NCBI GenBank assembly: GCA_029879945.1
Contig: JAOUPJ010000001.1
Location: forward strand, 1-39,049
DNA from: Gammaproteobacteria bacterium
GTDB taxonomy: Bacteria; Pseudomonadota; Gammaproteobacteria; S012-40
Length of the DNA stretch: 39,049 bases
Direction: 5' to 3'
Shown: one piece after another, positions 26,572 through 37,335 of the stretch
Layout of the letters: each line of letters begins with the position of its first letter
Numbering within the stretch: position 1 is the first letter of the stretch
Position numbers and translations under genes: made by a program
The notes under the pieces: generated by a model
Told to the model about the DNA's origin: nothing
The model's database searches: none
The model's input: the letters and a program-made list of their open reading frames with translations, nothing else

Positions 26572-26695
26572 TGACTGTGTCGCAAGATTCGTCCTCAAAC
26601 GAAAAACAGTCACCCATCCACTGATCGAGTCGGTGGAAGTTTTAATGCGTTCCCGGTGCAAGGAGGACGCACTCAATACTACAAAGAGGTTTTTT

Positions 26696-28744
26696 ATGTG
26701 CGGTATAGCGGGCGTTTTGAACGTCGATCCACAGTTTTCCGTTGATCCCCAACTTCTGGTCAACATGGCGGCTATCCAATACCACCGTGGTCCCGATGGA
26801 TTTGGCTACCGTACCCTAGACGATCGCGGAATCGGTTTCGCCCATGCGCGTCTGTCCATTATTGATCTGGACGAGAATCGGGGCCGCCAACCTTTCGTCT
26901 CTCAGGACCAGCAGCTCCTGCTCACCCACAATGGTGAGTTCTATGACTACAAACGACTCCGCGCCGACCTTAGTTCACGCGGCGAACGTTTTAGCAGTAA
27001 GAGTGATTCGGAAATAGTGCTGCATTTGTACCCACGCCTTGGTCTCGAAGACATGCTTCCTTATTTGCGTGGTGAATTCGCCTTTGCCTTATATGATAAA
27101 AGAAAAGACAAGCTGATCCTGGTACGGGACCGCTTTGGTATCAAGCCTCTGTACTGGACCCAGGTCAACGGTAGCTTTGTTTTTGGTTCCGAAATAAAGG
27201 TTCTGTTTGCTCATCCCAAGGTGCCGCGAAAAATCAGCGACACGGGCCTATACCACCAACTCATGCAAACCATTGCGCCCGGCACAACCCCTTTCGAAAA
27301 CATTCACCAGGTCGCACCCGGGCATGCACTCATCGTTGAACGCGTCCATGGAAAATTTAGAATCACAAGCCAAAAATATTGGGACATGGATTTTCCACTG
27401 CACTCGGAAAGAAAAGAGAAAGAAGACCAATACTATATAGAAGGCGTGCGCGAAAAACTGCTGGAGGCCGTACAACACCGACTGGAAGCCGATGTACCCG
27501 TGGCCTGCTACTTATCCGGCGGTATCGATTCCTGCTCCATACTGGGGCTATCCTCCGCCTCACAACAGTCTCCGGTGAAGGCATTCACCATCGGTTTTGA
27601 CGATGCCGATTATGACGAGACCGCTATTGCGAAAGAAATGGCTGCCGCCACCGGGGCAGACCAGGACATCATGATGCTTAACGCCAGGCATTTATACGAC
27701 AATTTTGCGCGCACCATCTGGCATACAGAACGCTCCATCTACAACACACTGGGCGTGGCCAAACTATTGATGAGTCAACATGTGAACCGGGCGGGATATC
27801 GTGTGGTCGTTACCGGCGAGGGCTCAGACGAATTGTTCTCAGGCTACCCCTCTTTCAGACGTGACATGTTCCTCTACGGTATGGACCATCTCAATGCCAG
27901 TGAGCGCGTCGCCTGGGAACAGATGCTGGCGGAAAGCAACAAACTATTCAAGGGTGCCATGCTCGCCGAAGAAGCCTGGGCCGATCCATTTCTGGATAAG
28001 ACACTGGGCTTCACCCCCAGTTGTCTGCAGCCCTGGCTCGCCAGCAGTCAACATGTCCTGGGTATCGTCGACGCAGGTCGTGCTAAAAACCTGAAAGACT
28101 ACCAAGCCGGCCAGGCCATCGCCGATGCGCTGGATGTAGATATGCTTGCCGAACGTCACCCCCTGGACAAGGCCCAGTACGTGTGGATCAAAACTCAATT
28201 GGAAGGACAGATTCTCACTTGGGGAGGGGATCGTGTGGACATGGCCAATTCCATGGAGGCCCGTCCTGCCTTTCTGGATCACCACCTGGCCGAGTTCGCT
28301 ACACAACTGCCCCCGAGCATGCGCATACGGGGTCGCGTTGAAAAATTCGTATTGCGCGAGGCCATGAAGGGTCTGCTGCCTACGGTTTTGTACGAACGGG
28401 AAAAATTCGCCTTCATGGCTCCCCCCGCCCACACCGATCCTGAAAAATGGCAAGCCATGAAAGGTCTGGCTGATCGATATCTCTCTCCGGCCGCTATCAA
28501 CGATGCGGGCTTGCTCAGCGAGAATGGGGTGAATGCGCTATTCGCCCTGCACGAAAACCCGAACACATCCGCCGCCACTCAGGTACAATTGGATGCAGTT
28601 ATCAATCACATGCTCAGCGTTCAAATGATGCATGAAAAATTTATTGCTGCAGACCTGCCTAGACTGGCTCAAGAGCAAGCAGTAAAACTGGGCTGGAGCG
28701 TTACATCGGTCCCCGAAAATGAAAGAGATTATTCAAGACACTAG
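26696..28744 (+). CDS. Asparagine synthase (glutamine-hydrolysing) family amidotransferase, 682 aa
   Basis: AAGAGG RBS, then MCGIAGVL (the Cys2 nucleophile fixes the start). PP-loop YLSGGIDSCS. The track ORF starts 63 nt further upstream. Confidence 0.9.
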   Translation: MCGIAGVLNVDPQFSVDPQLLVNMAAIQYHRGPDGFGYRTLDDRGIGFAHARLSIIDLDENRGRQPFVSQDQQLLLTHNGEFYDYKRLRADLSSRGERFSSKSDSEIVLHLYPRLGLEDMLPYLRGEFAFALYDKRKDKLILVRDRFGIKPLYWTQVNGSFVFGSEIKVLFAHPKVPRKISDTGLYHQLMQTIAPGTTPFENIHQVAPGHALIVERVHGKFRITSQKYWDMDFPLHSERKEKEDQYYIEGVREKLLEAVQHRLEADVPVACYLSGGIDSCSILGLSSASQQSPVKAFTIGFDDADYDETAIAKEMAAATGADQDIMMLNARHLYDNFARTIWHTERSIYNTLGVAKLLMSQHVNRAGYRVVVTGEGSDELFSGYPSFRRDMFLYGMDHLNASERVAWEQMLAESNKLFKGAMLAEEAWADPFLDKTLGFTPSCLQPWLASSQHVLGIVDAGRAKNLKDYQAGQAIADALDVDMLAERHPLDKAQYVWIKTQLEGQILTWGGDRVDMANSMEARPAFLDHHLAEFATQLPPSMRIRGRVEKFVLREAMKGLLPTVLYEREKFAFMAPPAHTDPEKWQAMKGLADRYLSPAAINDAGLLSENGVNALFALHENPNTSAATQVQLDAVINHMLSVQMMHEKFIAADLPRLAQEQAVKLGWSVTSVPENERDYSRH

Positions 28745-29240
28745 CGCCACACTGGTTAAAAAGGGCGCCACAAAAAGCGAAAGGGATGAGCTGGCCAAAG
28801 CGGTGCTACAAAACCTGCGCGTAGTGGTGCGCACCACTCAAGCCCATTCACGCTGGATAGAAAAGAGTTCGGGCATCACAGGTGCCCAACTGTGGGCCCT
28901 GTGGGAGCTATTCGCGCAGCCGGGGCAAAAGGTGTCAGACTTGTCCCGTGCCCTGTCCATACATCAATCCACCGCCAGCAATATGCTGGATAAGCTCGAG
29001 GAACGAGGACTGATTCGTCGTGATCGCAGCGGGCCCGACCAGCGGGTCGTTCAATTATTTCTCACCCGTGAAGGCACCGATCTGCTTTCAGATGCACCAC
29101 GCCCGGCTCAGGGTGCCATTATGGACGCGCTGAAGTCCATGTCTAACGGAGACCTGCTCAATCTGAATCAGGGTCTCAACAGTTTGCTCGACCATATGCA
29201 AGTGTGGGAAAAAAATGCAGCCTTGAACCCCTTGAGCTAG
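28719..29240 (+). CDS. MarR-family transcriptional regulator
   Basis: 173 aa. Winged HTH (GITGAQLWALWELFAQPGQKVSDLSRALSIHQSTASNMLDKLEERGLIRRDR). Overlaps the asnB-like 3' end by 26 nt. Confidence 0.85.
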   Translation: MKEIIQDTSATLVKKGATKSERDELAKAVLQNLRVVVRTTQAHSRWIEKSSGITGAQLWALWELFAQPGQKVSDLSRALSIHQSTASNMLDKLEERGLIRRDRSGPDQRVVQLFLTREGTDLLSDAPRPAQGAIMDALKSMSNGDLLNLNQGLNSLLDHMQVWEKNAALNPLS

Positions 29241-29305: not shown

Positions 29306-29935
29306 TTAGAGACTTGAGAGGTATTCAGATACTGCTTCGATTTCTGCATCGGACAGGCGCTTTGCAATATCGCCCATCATGCCAGCTGGGTCATTCTTAC
29401 GCTCGCCAGAGCGGAAGGTGGTGAGCTGGGCAACAAGATAATCTTTATTTTGACCACCAATTACAGGAAAGACCTGGTTAGAACCAGACTTGCCCTTGCC
29501 ATTCTTACCGTGGCAATTCACACAGCCATAAAGACCGGTTTTGGGATTGCCGGAAGCAAAAATAGTCTCACCCTGTTTGAGAAGCTTACCGTCAGATCCG
29601 GGGATCATCGCAGTCATAGACTTCTGAGTGGAGAAGTAAGCTGCGATATCTTTGAGATCCTGGTTGCTGGCAACAGTCAACGCCATTGGAGACATGGTGT
29701 CGTTGTAGCGGTGATTGTTTTTGAAATCAGTCACTTGCTTGAAGATGTAGCCAGGCTTTTGACCGGCAAGATTAGGAAAATTCGGCGCAATTGATTGACC
29801 ATTTTCACCGTGGCAACCATGGCAAAGCGCTGATTTTACTGCACCTTCTTTCGGGTCTCCACCCGCTGCAAATGCCCCCCCTGAAGCTGCAACGATAGCA
29901 GCCAGGCCTAGAATGAAAGACATTTTTCTTATCAT
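29306..29935 (-). CDS. Dihaem cytochrome c4
   Basis: Start chosen at ATG 29935 (MIRKMSFILGLAAIVAASGGAFA signal), 209 aa. Two CxxCH motifs (CHGCH, CVNCH). The track ORF extends to 30061. Confidence 0.9.
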   Translation of the reverse strand: MIRKMSFILGLAAIVAASGGAFAAGGDPKEGAVKSALCHGCHGENGQSIAPNFPNLAGQKPGYIFKQVTDFKNNHRYNDTMSPMALTVASNQDLKDIAAYFSTQKSMTAMIPGSDGKLLKQGETIFASGNPKTGLYGCVNCHGKNGKGKSGSNQVFPVIGGQNKDYLVAQLTTFRSGERKNDPAGMMGDIAKRLSDAEIEAVSEYLSSL

Positions 29936-30010
29936 ATTCAACCCTTTAGATTCCTTTAACCTAGATCGAGTTACAAACAGACTCGTCATCAAAAAACTTT
30001 TGAAGTCTGT

Positions 30011-30038
30011 ATTGTAATATCGTGGCCGGGGATGTAAA
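30011..30038 (-). promoter_or_regulatory. Possible sigma-70 promoter for cytochrome c4
   Basis: Minus strand reads TTTACA (30038-30033), 16-nt spacer, TACAAT (30016-30011). Confidence 0.4.
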
Positions 30039-30093
30039 GCCCAAAGCAAAAGAAATGTCACGAATCAGAGACAATTCTGCTCATTTTTTCACA

Positions 30094-31173
30094 TCATCCC
30101 TTTGAATCGGGCTGCATGGCCTTTCTGAACAGGTGGGGCACCAAAAGATGCAGCGGCATCCGCATATAATGTGATCGAACAAATAGACACCAACGGGCAA
30201 ACCCGCTGAATCCGTCATCACAACTTTGATGATCGGGGCGCAGAACGCGTCGATATAAAAAATCCATCGCTGACTTGCGCAACCCTACTCCCGAGGCGCC
30301 ACGCAATGCATCCAGGGTGTCCTGTGGTATTTGCGAGTCCAGAACCTGTCTACAATAGTGTAATGCATAAAAAGTAGGCAGACTCAGGTCCAATGTGGCA
30401 GCCCGTGCAGTGAGTTTTTGCCAAAATTGCGCGTCGCGCCCACTGAACTCGTCCAACAAATATTTTAAATCGAACAAATCCCGTAGCGCATTTTCAAACT
30501 CGCCCTCGTGGAACAGATGCGTGGCACTGTGGATGATCCTATCCAATGGGGAAAGTGCATAGATATTACGCTGCGCATCCAGGCAAACCGCATCGGCCAG
30601 GAGGCGCTTCGGGTCAGGATGAAAGCGCGCCGTATCGGGCAGTATGCTGTGGTGCACATCCAGGCTGCTTTTGCGCGTGATGTGTCGCAATGGCGGTAAC
30701 TCATGCATCCACTTGCGATAGTAACGTTGATCGTAGGAATCCATGATTCCCGTTATCCAGCCGTAGTTGCGCAGGGTCAGTTCCACTTTACTGATCAATT
30801 CCCTGGGAACCAGAATATCCACATCATTGAAGACACGCTGCCGACCGGCATCCAGCCCTGCAATATGGTAGGCGCTCCCTTTCAATAAAACCAAGGGGAC
30901 ATCAATGCGCGACAAGGCCTTGCTCAAGGCGTGAACCTCCCAGTCCACCGTTTGTCTTTGCTTGGCAGCGACGGTATCGGCAGAAAGTAGATGGGCCTTG
31001 GACTGTTCAGGGACCGCGTCCCAAACGCCATTTTCCCTACACACCAGAGACAATCTGGCCATGAGTCGAGCCTGCCTAGCCTGGCGTATGAGCAAGTCCC
31101 ATTGATTCAGCGACAGTGAGGGAACCCTCTCCTTCGGGTGCAGCAGACAATCGACCAGCAACGGCGTTTGCAT
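30094..31173 (-). CDS. Nucleotidyltransferase family protein (NTP_transf_5-like)
   Basis: LLKGSAYHIAGLDAGRQRVFNDVDILVPRE. ATG 31173 overlaps the upstream stop by 1 nt (TGATG). Confidence 0.78.
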   Translation of the reverse strand: MQTPLLVDCLLHPKERVPSLSLNQWDLLIRQARQARLMARLSLVCRENGVWDAVPEQSKAHLLSADTVAAKQRQTVDWEVHALSKALSRIDVPLVLLKGSAYHIAGLDAGRQRVFNDVDILVPRELISKVELTLRNYGWITGIMDSYDQRYYRKWMHELPPLRHITRKSSLDVHHSILPDTARFHPDPKRLLADAVCLDAQRNIYALSPLDRIIHSATHLFHEGEFENALRDLFDLKYLLDEFSGRDAQFWQKLTARAATLDLSLPTFYALHYCRQVLDSQIPQDTLDALRGASGVGLRKSAMDFLYRRVLRPDHQSCDDGFSGFARWCLFVRSHYMRMPLHLLVPHLFRKAMQPDSKG

Positions 31174-32069
31174 CAAACCTTCCCCTCAAAGAGTTGATCA
31201 AACACCTTTACCGCGTCATCCAGGCGACTATAGCTGAAACGGTAGCAGTGACATCGGTCCATCAGGTCTGCTGTCATATCATAGGCAGTAGCCCCTAATA
31301 CGCTGTAATTAAAAGCATTTAAGGCCACCTCCATGAACATATCCCCTTTGTCCATATCGATGAGCGTGGCCGCCGCCTCAGGCACATACTTGGGCAGAAC
31401 CACCCATGTGGGCATGGCGGTCTGCTCCTGCAGCGTGATCATCTCATGGGGTACTTTAAGGTGGGCGACGGTGCCCTTGGCCGTGTCATGGGCAATGGGG
31501 CCAATTTCTGCGGCCGCATCATAGTTGCGAATGATGTCGATGGACTGATTCTTCAAACTCACCGGGCGCGGTACTGGATGAATGAGCCCGGTCTGCGGAT
31601 TGATCATGCACAACTCATCCGATAGCAATCGCCATCCTCGATGGATCAGCCCGGCGCAGAGCGTACTCTTTCCTGAGCCCGGAGGCGCCGGCAGAATCAC
31701 CGCCTTATTGTCACGGGCAATGACGGCGGCATGGAAAATCAGATATTGGTTACTGTGTTGGGCAAAACACCAGTTCAGTCCCCATTCAAAAAAGGCAAAG
31801 GCCTGCGAATAGGGCAAGGGTTTAAAGGGTTGGCGTCCATCGAAATAAAACAGCGCCTGGGGATGATACCAACGACGCAGGCCACCGGGGGCCTTGATGG
31901 CGACGTGGAAGTCGATGAAATCTTGCGCATCGAGTGATGGGTAATCTCGATAGAGCTGCTCCATTCCGAGCAACACGGTTTTGAGCTGAGATTGTACGGA
32001 AACGGAAAAGGGACCTATACGTATTTTCAGTCCCTCGTTCTGCAGTTCGGTGGAGAGCCTTGAATTCAT
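31173..32069 (-). CDS. HprK-related kinase A-type P-loop protein
   Basis: 298 aa. HAAVIARDNKAVILPAPPGSGKSTLCAGLIHRGWRLLSDE resembles the HPr kinase C-terminal fold and P-loop. Its start overlaps the PqqD-like stop by 1 nt. Confidence 0.82.
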   Translation of the reverse strand: MNSRLSTELQNEGLKIRIGPFSVSVQSQLKTVLLGMEQLYRDYPSLDAQDFIDFHVAIKAPGGLRRWYHPQALFYFDGRQPFKPLPYSQAFAFFEWGLNWCFAQHSNQYLIFHAAVIARDNKAVILPAPPGSGKSTLCAGLIHRGWRLLSDELCMINPQTGLIHPVPRPVSLKNQSIDIIRNYDAAAEIGPIAHDTAKGTVAHLKVPHEMITLQEQTAMPTWVVLPKYVPEAAATLIDMDKGDMFMEVALNAFNYSVLGATAYDMTADLMDRCHCYRFSYSRLDDAVKVFDQLFEGKV

Positions 32070-32350
32070 CAGCCCTCTACCTTTTCAATAATGCTCAGCC
32101 TGAGGAGTTCCTTGAGAAAGATTTCGATCAATTCCCGCACTTCCTCGTCGATCGATTCCATCCCCTGCTGCTGCAGGAAGGCGCAGATATCCTCCACACT
32201 CATGGCCTGGTTCTGTAGCTGTTCCAGAATACTGATGTAGGGCTGTTTGAAAAGGTGCGTGTCTCCCGTACCGTGGTGATAGCAGACACAACTGTCTCCC
32301 CAGCAGCGCCAGCTCAGTTTGACTTGTTCCGGGACACGCCAAGTCTCCAC
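32069..32350 (-). CDS. PqqD-family peptide chaperone (HPr-rel-A system type)
   Basis: 93 aa. GTG start with GGAG 8 nt upstream. WRCWGDSCVCYHHGTGDTHLF..., then a winged-helix-like remainder. Confidence 0.78.
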   Translation of the reverse strand: METWRVPEQVKLSWRCWGDSCVCYHHGTGDTHLFKQPYISILEQLQNQAMSVEDICAFLQQQGMESIDEEVRELIEIFLKELLRLSIIEKVEG

Positions 32351-32447: not shown

Positions 32448-32475
32448 AAATGGAGGGACATACACCCCTCCATTT
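32448..32475 (-). promoter_or_regulatory. Intercistronic stem-loop directly after the P1 stop (partial terminator or RNA-stability element)
   Basis: Perfect 10-bp stem AAATGGAGGG (32448-32457) / CCCTCCATTT (32466-32475) with an 8-nt loop, starting 5 nt after the TAA at 32480-32482. No U-tract follows on the minus strand. Confidence 0.5.
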
Positions 32476-32479
32476 AGAT

Positions 32480-33148
32480 TTAATTCAGAGGACAGTATTG
32501 ATTGTTGAGAAAATCCAGGGAGTTTTTGGCCTCTTCCATCAACTCAAGATTACAGCTTTCCCAGGCGTTCTGGAAACTGGCAATCACTTCTTCAACCGTG
32601 AGGTCAAAGCTGACAGTAGTCGCCGCATTTTGCAGCGCTGCTACAGAGTGAAAACCCAGCTGTCTCAACATGCTGTGGTAGTTCGACCCCTTATGATGGC
32701 CACCGTTATGATGATCACCATCGTTATCGTAGTCGAAACTGCAGCCTGCGGGTGGCTCTCCGCGAATGCCATCGTCGTCTTCAACGCTCACGATTTCGAG
32801 TAAAGTTCTGCCAGGAAAGGCGGATGTTTGGAAAACGGTGTCAAATAGAGCCTCAGGAGGAAGCATTGAATGCCAGCTGTCCAGGTGAGTCTTCCAGTAG
32901 CCGGGAGAACACCCTTCGCCACCACATTTTTCATCCTCATCCTGGTGTGAGAGATTTCCAGAGAGTTGTCCAGAAAGTGTACATTTATTCGCCCAGGCTG
33001 GCTTGTTGGCAAGCGTCATCACAACCGGTGCTGCAAGCAGGCTGGACTTGGCAAATCTTCTTTTCGACAGGTCTACTTTCTCAGTGGCCTGTTCTTTTGT
33101 TACTTCATTTTCTCTCTTAGACTCAGAAAACTTATTATCATCAGTCAT
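32480..33148 (-). CDS. P1: exported hypothetical protein with a twin-arginine-like signal and six conserved Cys; family not recognised
   Basis: 222 aa. LSKRRFAKSSLLAAPVVMTLANKPAWA/NKCTLSGQLSGNLSH, CGGEGCS, PPAGC, SC, CPL. Paralogue of the gene at 34999-35634. Confidence 0.8.
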   Translation of the reverse strand: MTDDNKFSESKRENEVTKEQATEKVDLSKRRFAKSSLLAAPVVMTLANKPAWANKCTLSGQLSGNLSHQDEDEKCGGEGCSPGYWKTHLDSWHSMLPPEALFDTVFQTSAFPGRTLLEIVSVEDDDGIRGEPPAGCSFDYDNDGDHHNGGHHKGSNYHSMLRQLGFHSVAALQNAATTVSFDLTVEEVIASFQNAWESCNLELMEEAKNSLDFLNNQYCPLN

Positions 33149-33697
33149 TTTATAACCTACTAAAGCAATGGACGTCTAATGCGGGATCTTCCCTGGTTCC
33201 CAACGAATAGCATCCATGCCGGATATGGTCTAAAACGCGATCAAATCCTTTCGTGGCGTATATATAATCAGATTCTTATTATTGTTGTAATATTCTGTTC
33301 CATTATACCCTATAAAACATACCAAGATAAAGGTTAACGGGTAATTTTTGTTCGAATTAATCGAATCCCCGACTCTCCCCCTTCCGCGAGGGGCGGCGCC
33401 AAACAGCGATTGGGTTTCATCTTATTTATATTATCTATCAACTGGTTACGGTTAAGCGGGAGGACCATGAACTGTCGCAACCACGGTGACGGGATTCCAT
33501 AATGAGTTAATCCCACTATCAAACACAAAAGCAGGCTTGTGCCCAAATGACTGCGTCCTTACACTAGCACTACAAAGGTGACTCTCCAGTGCCGAAATCA
33601 CACTAACGAAACCAGGCTTGGCAAAACCTGCTCAGCGTGTCCCACACTGAGACCGGGTGTCACAAAACACAATTTAAATAGTTGGCTCACCGACAAA

Positions 33698-34927
33698 ATG
33701 ACTTCAAATAAAACTGCATACATTGTTTTTGCCTGCGGCCTGTATGGTCTTTTTCTCGTCTATGGAACACTCTTTCCCATACTCAACTTTGCCTGGCAGC
33801 CGGAAAACTTCAAAGTTTTGTTCACAAATCTGAACACTGTTCAGATAACAAAGCCCGACCTCATAACTAATCTAATTGTGTACATCCCTCTGGGATTTCT
33901 TATCGCCAGTCTGCTCGTAAAAGACAGGCCTTTTGTCATCTACACGCTACTCGCCACATGTGCCGGATGTGTGCTGAGCCTGTCGCTGGAATTATTGCAG
34001 ACCCAATTACCGGGGCGAGTCCCTTCACTTTTGGATTTGCTTTTGAATACAGTGGGCGCTGGCCTGGGTGGGGCAATCTTCAGCCTGATGAAACACGCAG
34101 GTTCTGGCCAAATTGTCCTGTTTAACAGAATCCTTTCCATTACCAACAAAGATCTGCACGCCAAACTGGCGGCAAGCTGCATTGGAGTATGGATCGCATC
34201 CCAAACCGCACCCTTTGCCCCATCCATTGATGTAGGACTTCTTTGGAGTAGTGTGAAACCGGTATGGCTGACGCTTAATAGTCTTGACACCTTCCAGTGG
34301 ATGAAGCTCGTGGAATACCTCTGCGCTTTCATAATCATTGCGTTACTGCTGGAATATCTCCTCAACGCCAAAGGAAAACATACGCAGATTTTTCTCGCAC
34401 TCTTGCTGCTTACCGTGCTATTGAAAATCATTGTCGTAAGCCGCGTCGTATCACTGGAAATGTTGCTTGCGCTGCTTTGTGCCCTGACCTACCCTCTGCT
34501 GAAACGTTTCCTTTCCCCTGAGATTCGTCCCCATGCATTGGTACTCTTAACGATAATCTATATTCTTGCAGACCAACTCAAACCCGGGAGCGCCGCCACA
34601 TTCAATTCCATTAACTGGATACCCTTTAGTGGACAGATGAGTAGTCTTTCCGGTTTCATCGATATACTGGAGACCGCCTGGCCCTTCACAGTGATTGCAC
34701 TGGCCAACATCCTGGCCCTTAACAAATCACCAAGTTCGGTACTACCCTGGAAGGAGCTTTTTTCAGTGGTGTTTCTGGCCTTTGGGGTGGAATGGGCACA
34801 ACAGTACACGCCGGGGCGTTTTCCGGACGTGACGGATGTGTTTATCGCAGTACTGGGCTGGTTTGCGCTGCACTACCTGGCGCGGTATTTACACCTGGGC
34901 AGTACACAAAAGAGCTTGAGTGACTAG
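33698..34927 (+). CDS. Polytopic membrane protein with VanZ-like motifs at both termini
   Basis: Start at ATG 33698 gives 409 aa, matching the 410-aa paralogue. LIVYIPLGF...LELLQTQLPGRVPSLLDLLLNTVGAGLGG, and near the C-terminus GVEWAQQYTPGRFPDVTDVFIAVLGW. Confidence 0.8.
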   Translation: MTSNKTAYIVFACGLYGLFLVYGTLFPILNFAWQPENFKVLFTNLNTVQITKPDLITNLIVYIPLGFLIASLLVKDRPFVIYTLLATCAGCVLSLSLELLQTQLPGRVPSLLDLLLNTVGAGLGGAIFSLMKHAGSGQIVLFNRILSITNKDLHAKLAASCIGVWIASQTAPFAPSIDVGLLWSSVKPVWLTLNSLDTFQWMKLVEYLCAFIIIALLLEYLLNAKGKHTQIFLALLLLTVLLKIIVVSRVVSLEMLLALLCALTYPLLKRFLSPEIRPHALVLLTIIYILADQLKPGSAATFNSINWIPFSGQMSSLSGFIDILETAWPFTVIALANILALNKSPSSVLPWKELFSVVFLAFGVEWAQQYTPGRFPDVTDVFIAVLGWFALHYLARYLHLGSTQKSLSD

Positions 34928-34998: not shown

Positions 34999-35634
34999 CT
35001 AGGCGGCCCCGCCCAAGGGACAAAGCTGACTATTCAATTGATCCAGGGTAGTCGCAGCCGCCTTCATCACTTCCGGATCACAACTGTGATAGGCATTGCG
35101 GAAGTTTGAAATAACTTGTTCAACTGTGAGATCAAAGTTCACGGGTGTGGCCGCATTTTGTAGCGCAGCCACTGATTGCACCGCCAGGTATCGAAGCGTG
35201 TGCTGATACGCGTGGGCTTCAGTTGAACTCACTAAAGCACAACCGGCAGGTGGCTCTCCCCGCACATTGGGATCATTACTCAAACCCAGGGTTTGCAGTA
35301 AGCTAAGCCCGGGAAAGGCTTCCACCTGAAAGACTGTATCAAACAGTGCTTCCGGCGGTATTTGCGCATGCCATTGGTCAGTATTCAATTGCCAAAAACT
35401 GGTGGAACACCCCTCGCCACCGCAGGGCTCGTCGCCATGATGAGATAGATTCCCGGAAAGCTGGCCAGAAAGCGTGCACTTCCCTGCCCATGCTGGCTTG
35501 TTTGCGAGGGTCAATACCACAGGAGCAAGCACCAGTGCAGATTTTGTGAGTCGGCGCCTGGACTGGTCCACCTGGCGGTTTGCTGAGTCTAAACGGGAAA
35601 CATCCAAATTTTCCTGGCTATCCTTTTCCTTCAT
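34999..35634 (-). CDS. P2: paralogue of P1 (exported, twin-arginine-like signal, six Cys)
   Basis: 211 aa. QSRRRLTKSALVLAPVVLTLANKPAWA/GKCTLSGQLSGNLSH. The same six Cys positions as P1. Confidence 0.8.
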   Translation of the reverse strand: MKEKDSQENLDVSRLDSANRQVDQSRRRLTKSALVLAPVVLTLANKPAWAGKCTLSGQLSGNLSHHGDEPCGGEGCSTSFWQLNTDQWHAQIPPEALFDTVFQVEAFPGLSLLQTLGLSNDPNVRGEPPAGCALVSSTEAHAYQHTLRYLAVQSVAALQNAATPVNFDLTVEQVISNFRNAYHSCDPEVMKAAATTLDQLNSQLCPLGGAA

Positions 35635-36102: not shown

Positions 36103-37335
36103 ATGTATCAGGCCAGATCACAGCGCCATTTCCTGCTGCCCTTGCTCACAGTTGCATATATGCTGCTTTTGGCCTATGCCAGCCTGTTTCCGCTTAGCGG
36201 ATGGCAAATCCCCGTCTATGAAAACTGGCTGGATGCCTATGAAGTTCGAAACCGATATATTACCCGCACCGATCTAACGACCAACTTTCTGGTCTATATC
36301 CCTTTGGGATTACTGGCCTACATCTGGCTCCGTTCCCACTATCACTGGAAGGTAGCCGGGATCATCGTTCTGCTTACGAGTCTCGCTCTAAGCTTCACGC
36401 TGGAGTCACTTCAGCTTTTTATTCCCTCCAGGGTCCCCTCTTTTGTAGACCTAGTAATGAACATACTGGGAGCTGCGGTAGGCATCGCTATCGCGCACAC
36501 CTTTAGTGAACATACAAATCTGGGGCAGCGATTTCAGTTTCTTCGACACCGTTGGATAAAACCCGGACATCTTGCCAATATGGGGCTGGTGATACTTGGT
36601 CTTTGGGCAATCTCGGAACTGAGTCCAATTATCCCTTCACTGGAAGCGGCACACATCAAAAAGCAACTGATTCCACTATCATTGGTGCTAGAGCAACCTG
36701 AGCTTCTAAAACCTAAACTTTTCTTTATTGCTGTTTTACAACTCTCAGCGCTCCTGTATCTGGCCACCACCGTTTTCAAAGATAGTTCTCGGGCAATTCG
36801 CAGTTTTTTCTGGTTCTGTGTCCTAATCTATCTGTACAAACTTACCGTTGTTAATCGCTTATTACTGCCCGAGTCTATCTTGGCCGTTCCCATTGCCATT
36901 TCGTTGGTGCACATTACAAAAAACTTCTCCAAACAAGCCATCGTCTTTGCCATCTATTTTTGCATTATTGTCGCCTATTCACTAGGCCAGCTCGGCACTC
37001 TGAGCAGCCAGGCCGGCTATTTTCGGGAAATGAACTGGATTCCTTTTTACAGCTATATCGCCAGCGTCAGGCAATTTACGGAAATAGCCACCACGAGTTG
37101 GGAATTTTTATTGCTTGCCTACGCGTTTATCTACTTGCAGGCCAGAAACAGTCTGCTCGTGATGATGCTGGGATTATTCGGTATAGCCGCATTCACCCTG
37201 ACCCTGGAAGTGGGACAACAATACATCGTGGGTGCAAAACCGGATATTACAAACGTATTGCTCGCCACACTGGCCTGGCTACTCCCCTGGTTACACCCCT
37301 TGATCCGCAGAAGACACTCCCTGAATTCTTTATAG
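36103..37335 (+). CDS. Polytopic membrane protein with VanZ-like motifs at both termini (paralogue of 33698-34927)
   Basis: 410 aa. FLVYIPLGL...LESLQLFIPSRVPSFVDLVMNILGAAVG, and LEVGQQYIVGAKPDITNVLLATLAW. Confidence 0.8.
   Translation: MYQARSQRHFLLPLLTVAYMLLLAYASLFPLSGWQIPVYENWLDAYEVRNRYITRTDLTTNFLVYIPLGLLAYIWLRSHYHWKVAGIIVLLTSLALSFTLESLQLFIPSRVPSFVDLVMNILGAAVGIAIAHTFSEHTNLGQRFQFLRHRWIKPGHLANMGLVILGLWAISELSPIIPSLEAAHIKKQLIPLSLVLEQPELLKPKLFFIAVLQLSALLYLATTVFKDSSRAIRSFFWFCVLIYLYKLTVVNRLLLPESILAVPIAISLVHITKNFSKQAIVFAIYFCIIVAYSLGQLGTLSSQAGYFREMNWIPFYSYIASVRQFTEIATTSWEFLLLAYAFIYLQARNSLLVMMLGLFGIAAFTLTLEVGQQYIVGAKPDITNVLLATLAWLLPWLHPLIRRRHSLNSL

Follow-up and report, generated by a model that had tools for sequence, protein, structure and literature searches.

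The subject of this analysis is a block of 24 residues shared by two paralogous proteins, here called P1 and P2, of a Gammaproteobacteria bacterium. Both are encoded on a stretch of 39,049 nucleotides (assembly GCA_029879945.1, contig JAOUPJ010000001.1, positions 1 to 39,049), referred to below as the window, which carries two P genes and one HPr-rel-A cassette with genes for a PqqD-like protein, an HprK-related kinase and a nucleotidyltransferase. The conservation of the block is due to purifying selection on the peptide, and not to gene conversion or a nucleic-acid element. As judged from the alignments, the block is made up of two strongly conserved modules, the end of a twin-arginine (Tat) signal and a Ser motif, with a variable junction between them. 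The Ser motif marks proteins encoded directly upstream of the cassette and is probably a site of docking and modification. For the reading as a whole, in which the block joins the tail of a Tat signal to the Ser motif of a precursor-like cassette substrate, we see the chances of being right and of being wrong as about equal.

The P1 gene (32480..33148, minus strand) encodes 222 aa with a Tat-type signal, the Ser motif and a helical domain of about 150 aa, while the P2 gene (34999..35634, minus strand) encodes a paralogue of 211 aa without a cassette of its own. The block covers residues 45-68 of P1 (nt 32945-33016, minus strand) and residues 42-65 of P2 (nt 35440-35511, minus strand), the Ser motif C53-S64 of P2 being located at nt 35443-35478. 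These coordinates were checked and agreed with the first-pass annotation, which had described the block as nearly invariant. Indeed, 23 of its 24 residues are identical in P1 and P2 despite an overall identity of 54% over 217 aligned positions, and N54 of P1, corresponding to G51 of P2, is the sole difference. When the per-column identity vector was shuffled, about 0.1% of 20,000 trials contained a stretch of 24 residues with at least 23 identities. The flanks had also been described as clearly diverged, which holds for the acidic n-region (residues 1-27) and the linker (residues 68-74), but not for the RR, the h-region or the CGGEGCS segment. The RR and the h-region upstream are moderately conserved, and CGGEGCS resumes after just seven variable residues past the block. 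A simple reason for the near-identity of the block would be that two substrates must fit a single enzyme set.

At the DNA level the two copies of the block are identical at 53 of 72 nucleotides. The same codon is used at six of the 22 identical block residues other than Met and Trp, compared with 32 of 91 elsewhere in the gene (Fisher p=0.62). The block codons are thus as diverged as those elsewhere, and therefore the conservation acts on the protein and gene conversion between P1 and P2, the explanation that the first-pass annotation had named as able to refute its reading, is excluded. The two copies have no long DNA repeat in common. Besides gene conversion, a cause at the DNA or RNA level could be an overlapping antisense open reading frame (ORF) or a structured RNA, and two mechanically called plus-strand ORFs do overlap here (32752-33120 and 32966-33163). 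However, 16 of the 23 identical residues differ in codon, the use of the same codon is not above that elsewhere, no synonymous constraint was seen, Rfam gave no match anywhere in the window, and the motif is kept across phyla at the protein level. This class of explanation is refuted, and we give it practically no weight.

Among 5.8 billion proteins searched, 78 relatives were found, nearly all of them unnamed metagenome proteins, and an exhaustive profile search gave 5,780 cluster representatives at E <= 0.001. In the alignment of the 78 relatives, the positions conserved in at least 90% were R29, R30, P41, C56, S59, G60, L62, S63, G64, N65, S67, C75, G77, G79 and C80. Weighted information content was then calculated for 164 RR-bearing members, each about 200 aa long. 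It amounted to 0.9 bits per position in the n-region (residues 1-27), 4.0 in the RR (29-30), 2.3 in the h-region (33-47), 3.1 in the c-region (48-53), 1.1 in the junction (54-55), 2.95 in the motif (56-67), 0.95 in the linker (68-74) and 1.5 in the domain (75-222). Homologues from other genomes keep the block, whose loss there would have refuted the first-pass reading, and few parts of the family are more conserved.

The upstream part of the block appears from its composition to be the end of a Tat signal. The twin-arginine of P1 is R30 R31 in S-K-R-R-F-A-K (33056..33061, minus strand), that of P2 lies in S-R-R-R-L-T-K, the family consensus is R-R-R-F-x-K, and the RR is about 94% conserved among the 164 members. 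In P1 this motif is followed by SSLLAAPVVMTLA, NKP and AWA, so that the RR motif, a moderate h-region and a c-region of a Tat signal are all present; the h-region is moderately hydrophobic and has a Pro, and the c-region has a basic residue. Residues 45-53 of P1 (TLANKPAWA, 32990..33016, minus strand) comprise the end of the h-region and the c-region with the basic residue and A-x-A, and they are the candidate docking site of the PqqD-like chaperone. Residues 54-55 (NK, 32984..32989, minus strand) form the variable junction and the predicted signal-peptidase site. Residues 56-67 (CTLSGQLSGNLS, 32948..32983, minus strand) follow the pattern C-x2-S-x3-S-x3-S and are the candidate acceptor of the kinase and nucleotidyltransferase.

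In homologues the junction tolerates Gly-rich inserts that can be about 20 residues long, and variability of this kind is to be expected where signal peptidase separates a signal peptide from the mature N-terminus. In some homologues Gly/Trp-rich insertions (e.g., GGGWGGGGWGGGGWGGGGKGGW) are found exactly between the A-x-A and the motif Cys (ORFs L024 4820-5641 and L042 2052-2738; proteins P0055 and P0007). The join of an AxA site, a Ser-rich repeat and the first Cys, which the first-pass annotation had taken as one unit, is present, and it is refined here to two modules split by an insertion-tolerant junction, with a signal of the twin-arginine type. A generalised motif, C-x(1-4)-S-x3-S-x3-[S/T], was detected after the signal in 152 of the 164 members, compared with a single one of the 164 when the C-terminal 70 residues were taken as the control. 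In 27 diverse cassette-linked precursors the Cys, S59, S63 and S67 were invariant, the Cys, S59 and S63 being demanded by the pattern used for selection. A lipoprotein signal was considered and rejected: there is no lipobox ([LVI][ASTVI][GAS]C), the sequence before the Cys being W-A-N-K-C in P1 and W-A-G-K-C in P2, and the distance from the A-x-A to the Cys varies.

The cassette genes are located downstream of P1 on the same strand. The PqqD-family peptide chaperone of the HPr-rel-A system (32069..32350, minus strand) scored 51.8 bits with TIGR04353 against a cut-off of 35, and the HprK-related kinase A (31173..32069, minus strand) scored 405.8 bits with TIGR04352 against a cut-off of 200. They are followed by the NTP_transf_5 nucleotidyltransferase (30094..31176, minus strand; PF14907, E=2.5e-46), and the PqqD stop overlaps the kinase start as the kinase stop overlaps the nucleotidyltransferase start. 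The kinase P-loop GSGKST (nt 31662-31679) is invariant in nine aligned homologues, and the kinase profile reaches the HprK/P structure 1jb1 (E=0.0035). With this P-loop and the GS...DVD motif of the nucleotidyltransferase, both enzymes look intact. The kinase and the PqqD-like protein are above the equivalog cut-offs and an NTP_transf_5 gene follows, which places the locus in the HPr-rel-A system, the NTP_transf_5 part of this assignment being taken from the composition of the related loci examined here and not from the curated HPr-rel-A definition.

The same arrangement was found elsewhere. Genome loci in which the sequence extends downstream of a P homologue came from seven species-representative metagenome-assembled genomes labelled Gamma-, Alpha- and Deltaproteobacteria, and all seven displayed the order P, PqqD, kinase, nucleotidyltransferase, which was also the order on long JGI contigs. 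In 67 loci the P stop was at most 323 nt (median 58 nt) from the PqqD match, as for a precursor adjacent to a RiPP (peptide made by the ribosome and modified after translation) recognition element (RRE). The idea that a small precursor peptide is hidden in the gap before PqqD was rejected, no conserved small ORF being detected in the 67 gaps. Starting from the other side, a metagenome scan with the kinase confirmed at least 575 relatives. Among the best 45 loci with at least 1.3 kb upstream, a P-profile match was located directly upstream of the kinase unit in 36, and in seven more (L017, L021, L038, L050, L078, L087 and L088) inspection of an upstream ORF revealed an RR leader together with a C-x-x-S-rich motif and a start of the form C-x-G-x-x-P-x-[YW]-W; no precursor was found upstream in the other two (L085 and L091). 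In almost every one of about 90 related loci, the kinase was followed by NTP_transf_5.

Relatives without the motif point in the same direction. The RR-bearing P0129 and P0156 lack the C..S...S...S motif and are followed by a DUF218 gene with no cassette, and the multidomain P0125 has no cassette nearby; P0124 and P0153 were left out of this comparison, their contigs being too short. The divergent motif variants P0158 (CDSLTASKAES) and P0141 retain the cassette. The RR-bearing, motif-less subfamily followed by DUF218 was seen at L096 2449-3976 and L099 322-2579, and an unannotated ORF of 241 aa precedes it in L099.

In other loci the four-gene unit adjoins XrtA/PEP-CTERM exopolysaccharide genes, namely PrsT, a chain-length determinant and an export protein, all above curated cut-offs (L017 2003-4831, L021 2062-4836, L050 2218-4630 and L088 4138-4869). 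Such neighbours are a hint of a role in the cell envelope or matrix.

AlphaFold2, run on P1 with a 76-sequence alignment, gave predicted local distance difference test (pLDDT) values below 50 at residues 34-68 and mostly in excess of 95 for the part between about residue 80 and residue 222, where it predicted a helical domain. The model thus places the block outside the folded domain. The globular domain (residues 75-222; 32483..32926, minus strand; CGGEGCSPGYW ... VAALQNAAT ... CPL) had no relative in the PDB, either by sequence profile or by Foldseek (best E=4.4). No model of Pfam-A or NCBIfam 20 matched P1, P2, the multidomain relatives or ten other upstream precursor-like ORFs, and no record describing the P family was found in the literature. 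The domain (EGC[ST]PG[YF]WK ... VAALLNA ... CPL) also occurs, single or in tandem, in large multidomain proteins that are secreted and can reach about 2,000 aa, such as P0079 with six copies, P0115 with 1,913 aa, P0112 and P0125-P0127. The copies in these proteins have neither the RR leader nor the Ser motif, and therefore leader and motif together are an add-on module specific to the small P proteins. The proposal of the first-pass annotation that the block is a recognition or modification site gains support from three independent lines, namely its position outside the predicted fold, the adjacent cassette and the motif-less relatives, all three of which lacked the cassette where their flanks could be read.

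P1 has an Asp/Gly/His-rich insertion (FDYDNDGDHHNGGHHKGSNYH, residues 138-158, nt 32675-32737) which is missing from P2 and at which the model confidence dips. This insertion could be a metal-binding loop.

Taken together, the P proteins are probably what the HPr-rel-A cassette modifies. Whether the Ser motif serves as its acceptor is an evenly balanced proposition, and the specific chemistry on these Ser residues, which is drawn from analogy, is put forward tentatively. In the proposed mechanism, the PqqD-like recognition element would bind the unusually conserved signal tail in the cytoplasm, and this docking would present the adjacent Ser triad to the kinase. The kinase would phosphorylate one or more of S59, S63 and S67, and the nucleotidyltransferase would place a sugar or nucleotide on the phosphate, as PsmN does on the phospho-Ser of pseudomycoidin. 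The modified P protein would then leave the cell folded via Tat. The Tat system transports proteins already folded and matured in the cytoplasm, and for this reason it fits the model. Finally, signal peptidase would cut in the variable junction, and the motif after AWA would become the N-terminus. A more general form of this proposal is that Tat proteins of about 200 aa are HPr-rel-A substrates carrying a phospho-linked sugar or nucleotide on a periodic Ser triad at the mature N-terminus, with the signal tail as a RiPP-style leader recognized by the PqqD-like protein, often beside XrtA/PEP-CTERM genes. RiPP-type enzymes would then act on entire proteins bound for export; we consider this possible, at somewhat below an even chance.

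No paper on the HPr-rel-A system, the HprK-related kinase, TIGR04352 and TIGR04353 or NTP_transf_5 was found in the literature search, in which PF14907 came up once, with a paper on phosphonate biosynthesis; the mechanism leans on better studied systems. This pair of enzymes is best characterised in the lasso peptides paeninodin and pseudomycoidin, where an HprK-type kinase, an NTP transferase and a PqqD-type protein are encoded alongside each other (PMC8498205, PMC6993621). The HprK homologue phosphorylates a Ser of lasso precursors (PMC8498205), and PsmN, an uncharacterised NTP transferase inactivated by a double mutation of its DxD motif, is required for the phosphorylated peptide to receive one or two hexoses (PMC6993621). 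Lasso precursors end in the phosphorylated Ser, whereas P1 ends in ...CPLN and P2 in ...LGGAA, and a P precursor differs from them in its length of about 200 aa, its export signal and its folded domain. A typical RRE-dependent RiPP precursor has fewer than 100 aa, an unstructured core and a dedicated leader peptidase, unlike P1 with its 222 aa and a fold of about 150 aa and with no peptidase in the conserved unit; no B2 leader peptidase was found among the operon genes scanned. A lasso cluster was also rejected because no lasso cyclase is present: the product of the nearby Asn synthase gene scored 203 bits with the lasso cyclase model NF033535 (cut-off 525), has the MCGI start of an amidotransferase and is not conserved with the cassette. 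The model libraries include no substrate of the HPr-rel-A system, and with their Tat leader and Ser triad the P proteins are candidates for this fourth component.

Bufferins are long precursors, folding like small proteins, which bear a general-secretion (Sec) signal instead of a classical leader; their modification takes place in the cytoplasm and involves an RRE-type partner, and it is followed by export and cleavage by signal peptidase (PMC11626156). They differ from P in having a Sec and not a Tat signal, and in the conversion of Cys to thiooxazole by MNIO and DUF2063 enzymes; neither MNIO (DUF692) nor DUF2063 was found among the neighbouring genes. The cytoplasmic proteins TorD, DmsD and NapD bind a Tat signal peptide and delay export until maturation. 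A shared concept with these Tat proofreading chaperones would explain why the signal tail is more conserved than the mature domain. They are without sequence relationship to the components in the window, where the binder would be a PqqD-family winged-helix protein and the maturation a covalent modification instead of cofactor insertion.

Several points weigh against the substrate reading, and docking at the signal tail is its weakest link. The signal peptide of bufferins is dispensable for modification (PMC11626156), and therefore the signal tail of P need not be the docking site. The kinase of the lasso systems targets a C-terminal Ser and not an internal triad (PMC8498205). The Tat model TIGR01409 matched neither P1 nor P2; it was the sole recurrent library match in the family, found weakly in 12 of 76 members (best E=0.0011), and the single score seen was 13 bits, below the cut-off of 16.7. 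P1 has KRR where the family has RRR. The pattern of motif-less and cassette-less relatives is small, amounting to three loci, and the look-up of sequencing runs returned sediment DNA metagenomes only and no RNA runs. Low pLDDT is compatible as well with a loop that becomes ordered on binding a metal or a partner, and a disulfide loop could form through C56 and C75, two conserved residues.

These last points lead to the strongest of the alternatives, in which a C56-C75 disulfide formed after export closes an 18-residue Ser/Gly/Asn loop that binds a metal, a cofactor or a partner such as the VanZ-like membrane protein. The motif would then be conserved for a periplasmic function, and the cassette would act on another part of P or on a different substrate. 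Each of the two Cys is conserved in more than 90% of the members, flexible binding loops often score low in AlphaFold2, the P1 domain has the His-rich insertion, and both P copies have a VanZ-like gene as partner. The pairing is, however, restricted to the closest relatives, and such a loop leaves unexplained both the equally conserved signal c-region and the tracking of motif with cassette, the motif being absent from the multidomain repeats and the DUF218-linked relatives. We regard it as unlikely, although it deserves to be kept in mind. A variant of the substrate reading itself makes the block a cross-link site, where the kinase and nucleotidyltransferase would activate Ser to dehydroalanine and C56 would add to form a lanthionine- or labionin-like ring. 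The labionin motif S-x2-S-x3-C is mirrored by C-x2-S-x3-S, the Cys precedes the first Ser at a near-fixed distance of one to four residues in 152 members out of 164, and the Cys and the three Ser are invariant in the 27 cassette-linked precursors, where selection required the Cys, S59 and S63. The conserved four-gene unit includes no gene for a lyase or cyclase domain, and the present evidence does not separate the ring from simple decoration of Ser; we judge the ring improbable. The sequence N65-L66-S67 could also be read as an N-x-S sequon for an N-glycosyltransferase encoded elsewhere, N65 and S67 being 89% and 88% conserved and N-x-S being kept in many divergent members. This idea ignores the more conserved S59 and S63, and the conserved unit encodes no oligosaccharyltransferase or NGT-type enzyme. 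Some members have N-P-S, which N-glycosyltransferases do not accept. A sequon is thus very improbable.

Other features were observed around the P genes. An 11-bp perfect hairpin (AAAUGGAGGGG...CCCCUCCAUUU, 32448..32475, minus strand) is located 5 nt past the P1 stop, before the PqqD-like gene. It has no U tract, and the 132-nt spacer between P1 and PqqD is more stably folded than its shuffled versions (z=-2.5); no significant structure was found in the intergenic region after P2. The hairpin may be an attenuator or stabiliser that sets the ratio of precursor to enzyme. The VanZ-like membrane protein 1 (33578..34927, plus strand; 449 aa, two VanZ-type matches) is encoded divergently from P1, and the VanZ-like membrane protein 2 (36103..37335, plus strand; 410 aa) divergently from P2. 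The two are only 31% identical, and so the P/VanZ pair seems to have been duplicated long ago. The pairing recurs solely in the closest relatives (L002/L065, L009-L012 and L089). After the nucleotidyltransferase gene lies a gene for a dihaem c-type cytochrome (29306-30061, minus strand), with the same layout in the syntenic L089 (8155-8868, 52% identity). The ORF of the Asn synthase family (26633-28744, plus strand) opens at GTG and has the MCGIAG N-terminus at codon 22, and its true start is probably nt 26696. Its 3' end overlaps a MarR-family gene (28719-29240) by 26 nt.

The cassette of HprK-related kinase A, PqqD and NTP_transf_5 is common in environmental Proteobacteria, with at least 575 relatives, and has curated models and no known substrate or function. 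The results provide this orphan cassette with a candidate substrate family, a candidate acceptor motif of 12 residues and a candidate docking segment, and they describe a domain family of 5,780 cluster representatives which has no Pfam or NCBIfam model. By analogy with the systems compared above, the P locus may represent RRE-guided tailoring, by a kinase and a nucleotidyltransferase, of a folded protein exported by Tat. If this is true, it would mean that RRE-guided tailoring reaches beyond short peptides to folded proteins that leave by Tat, and it would be the second case, after the Sec-dependent bufferins, in which a general export signal replaces the leader peptide.

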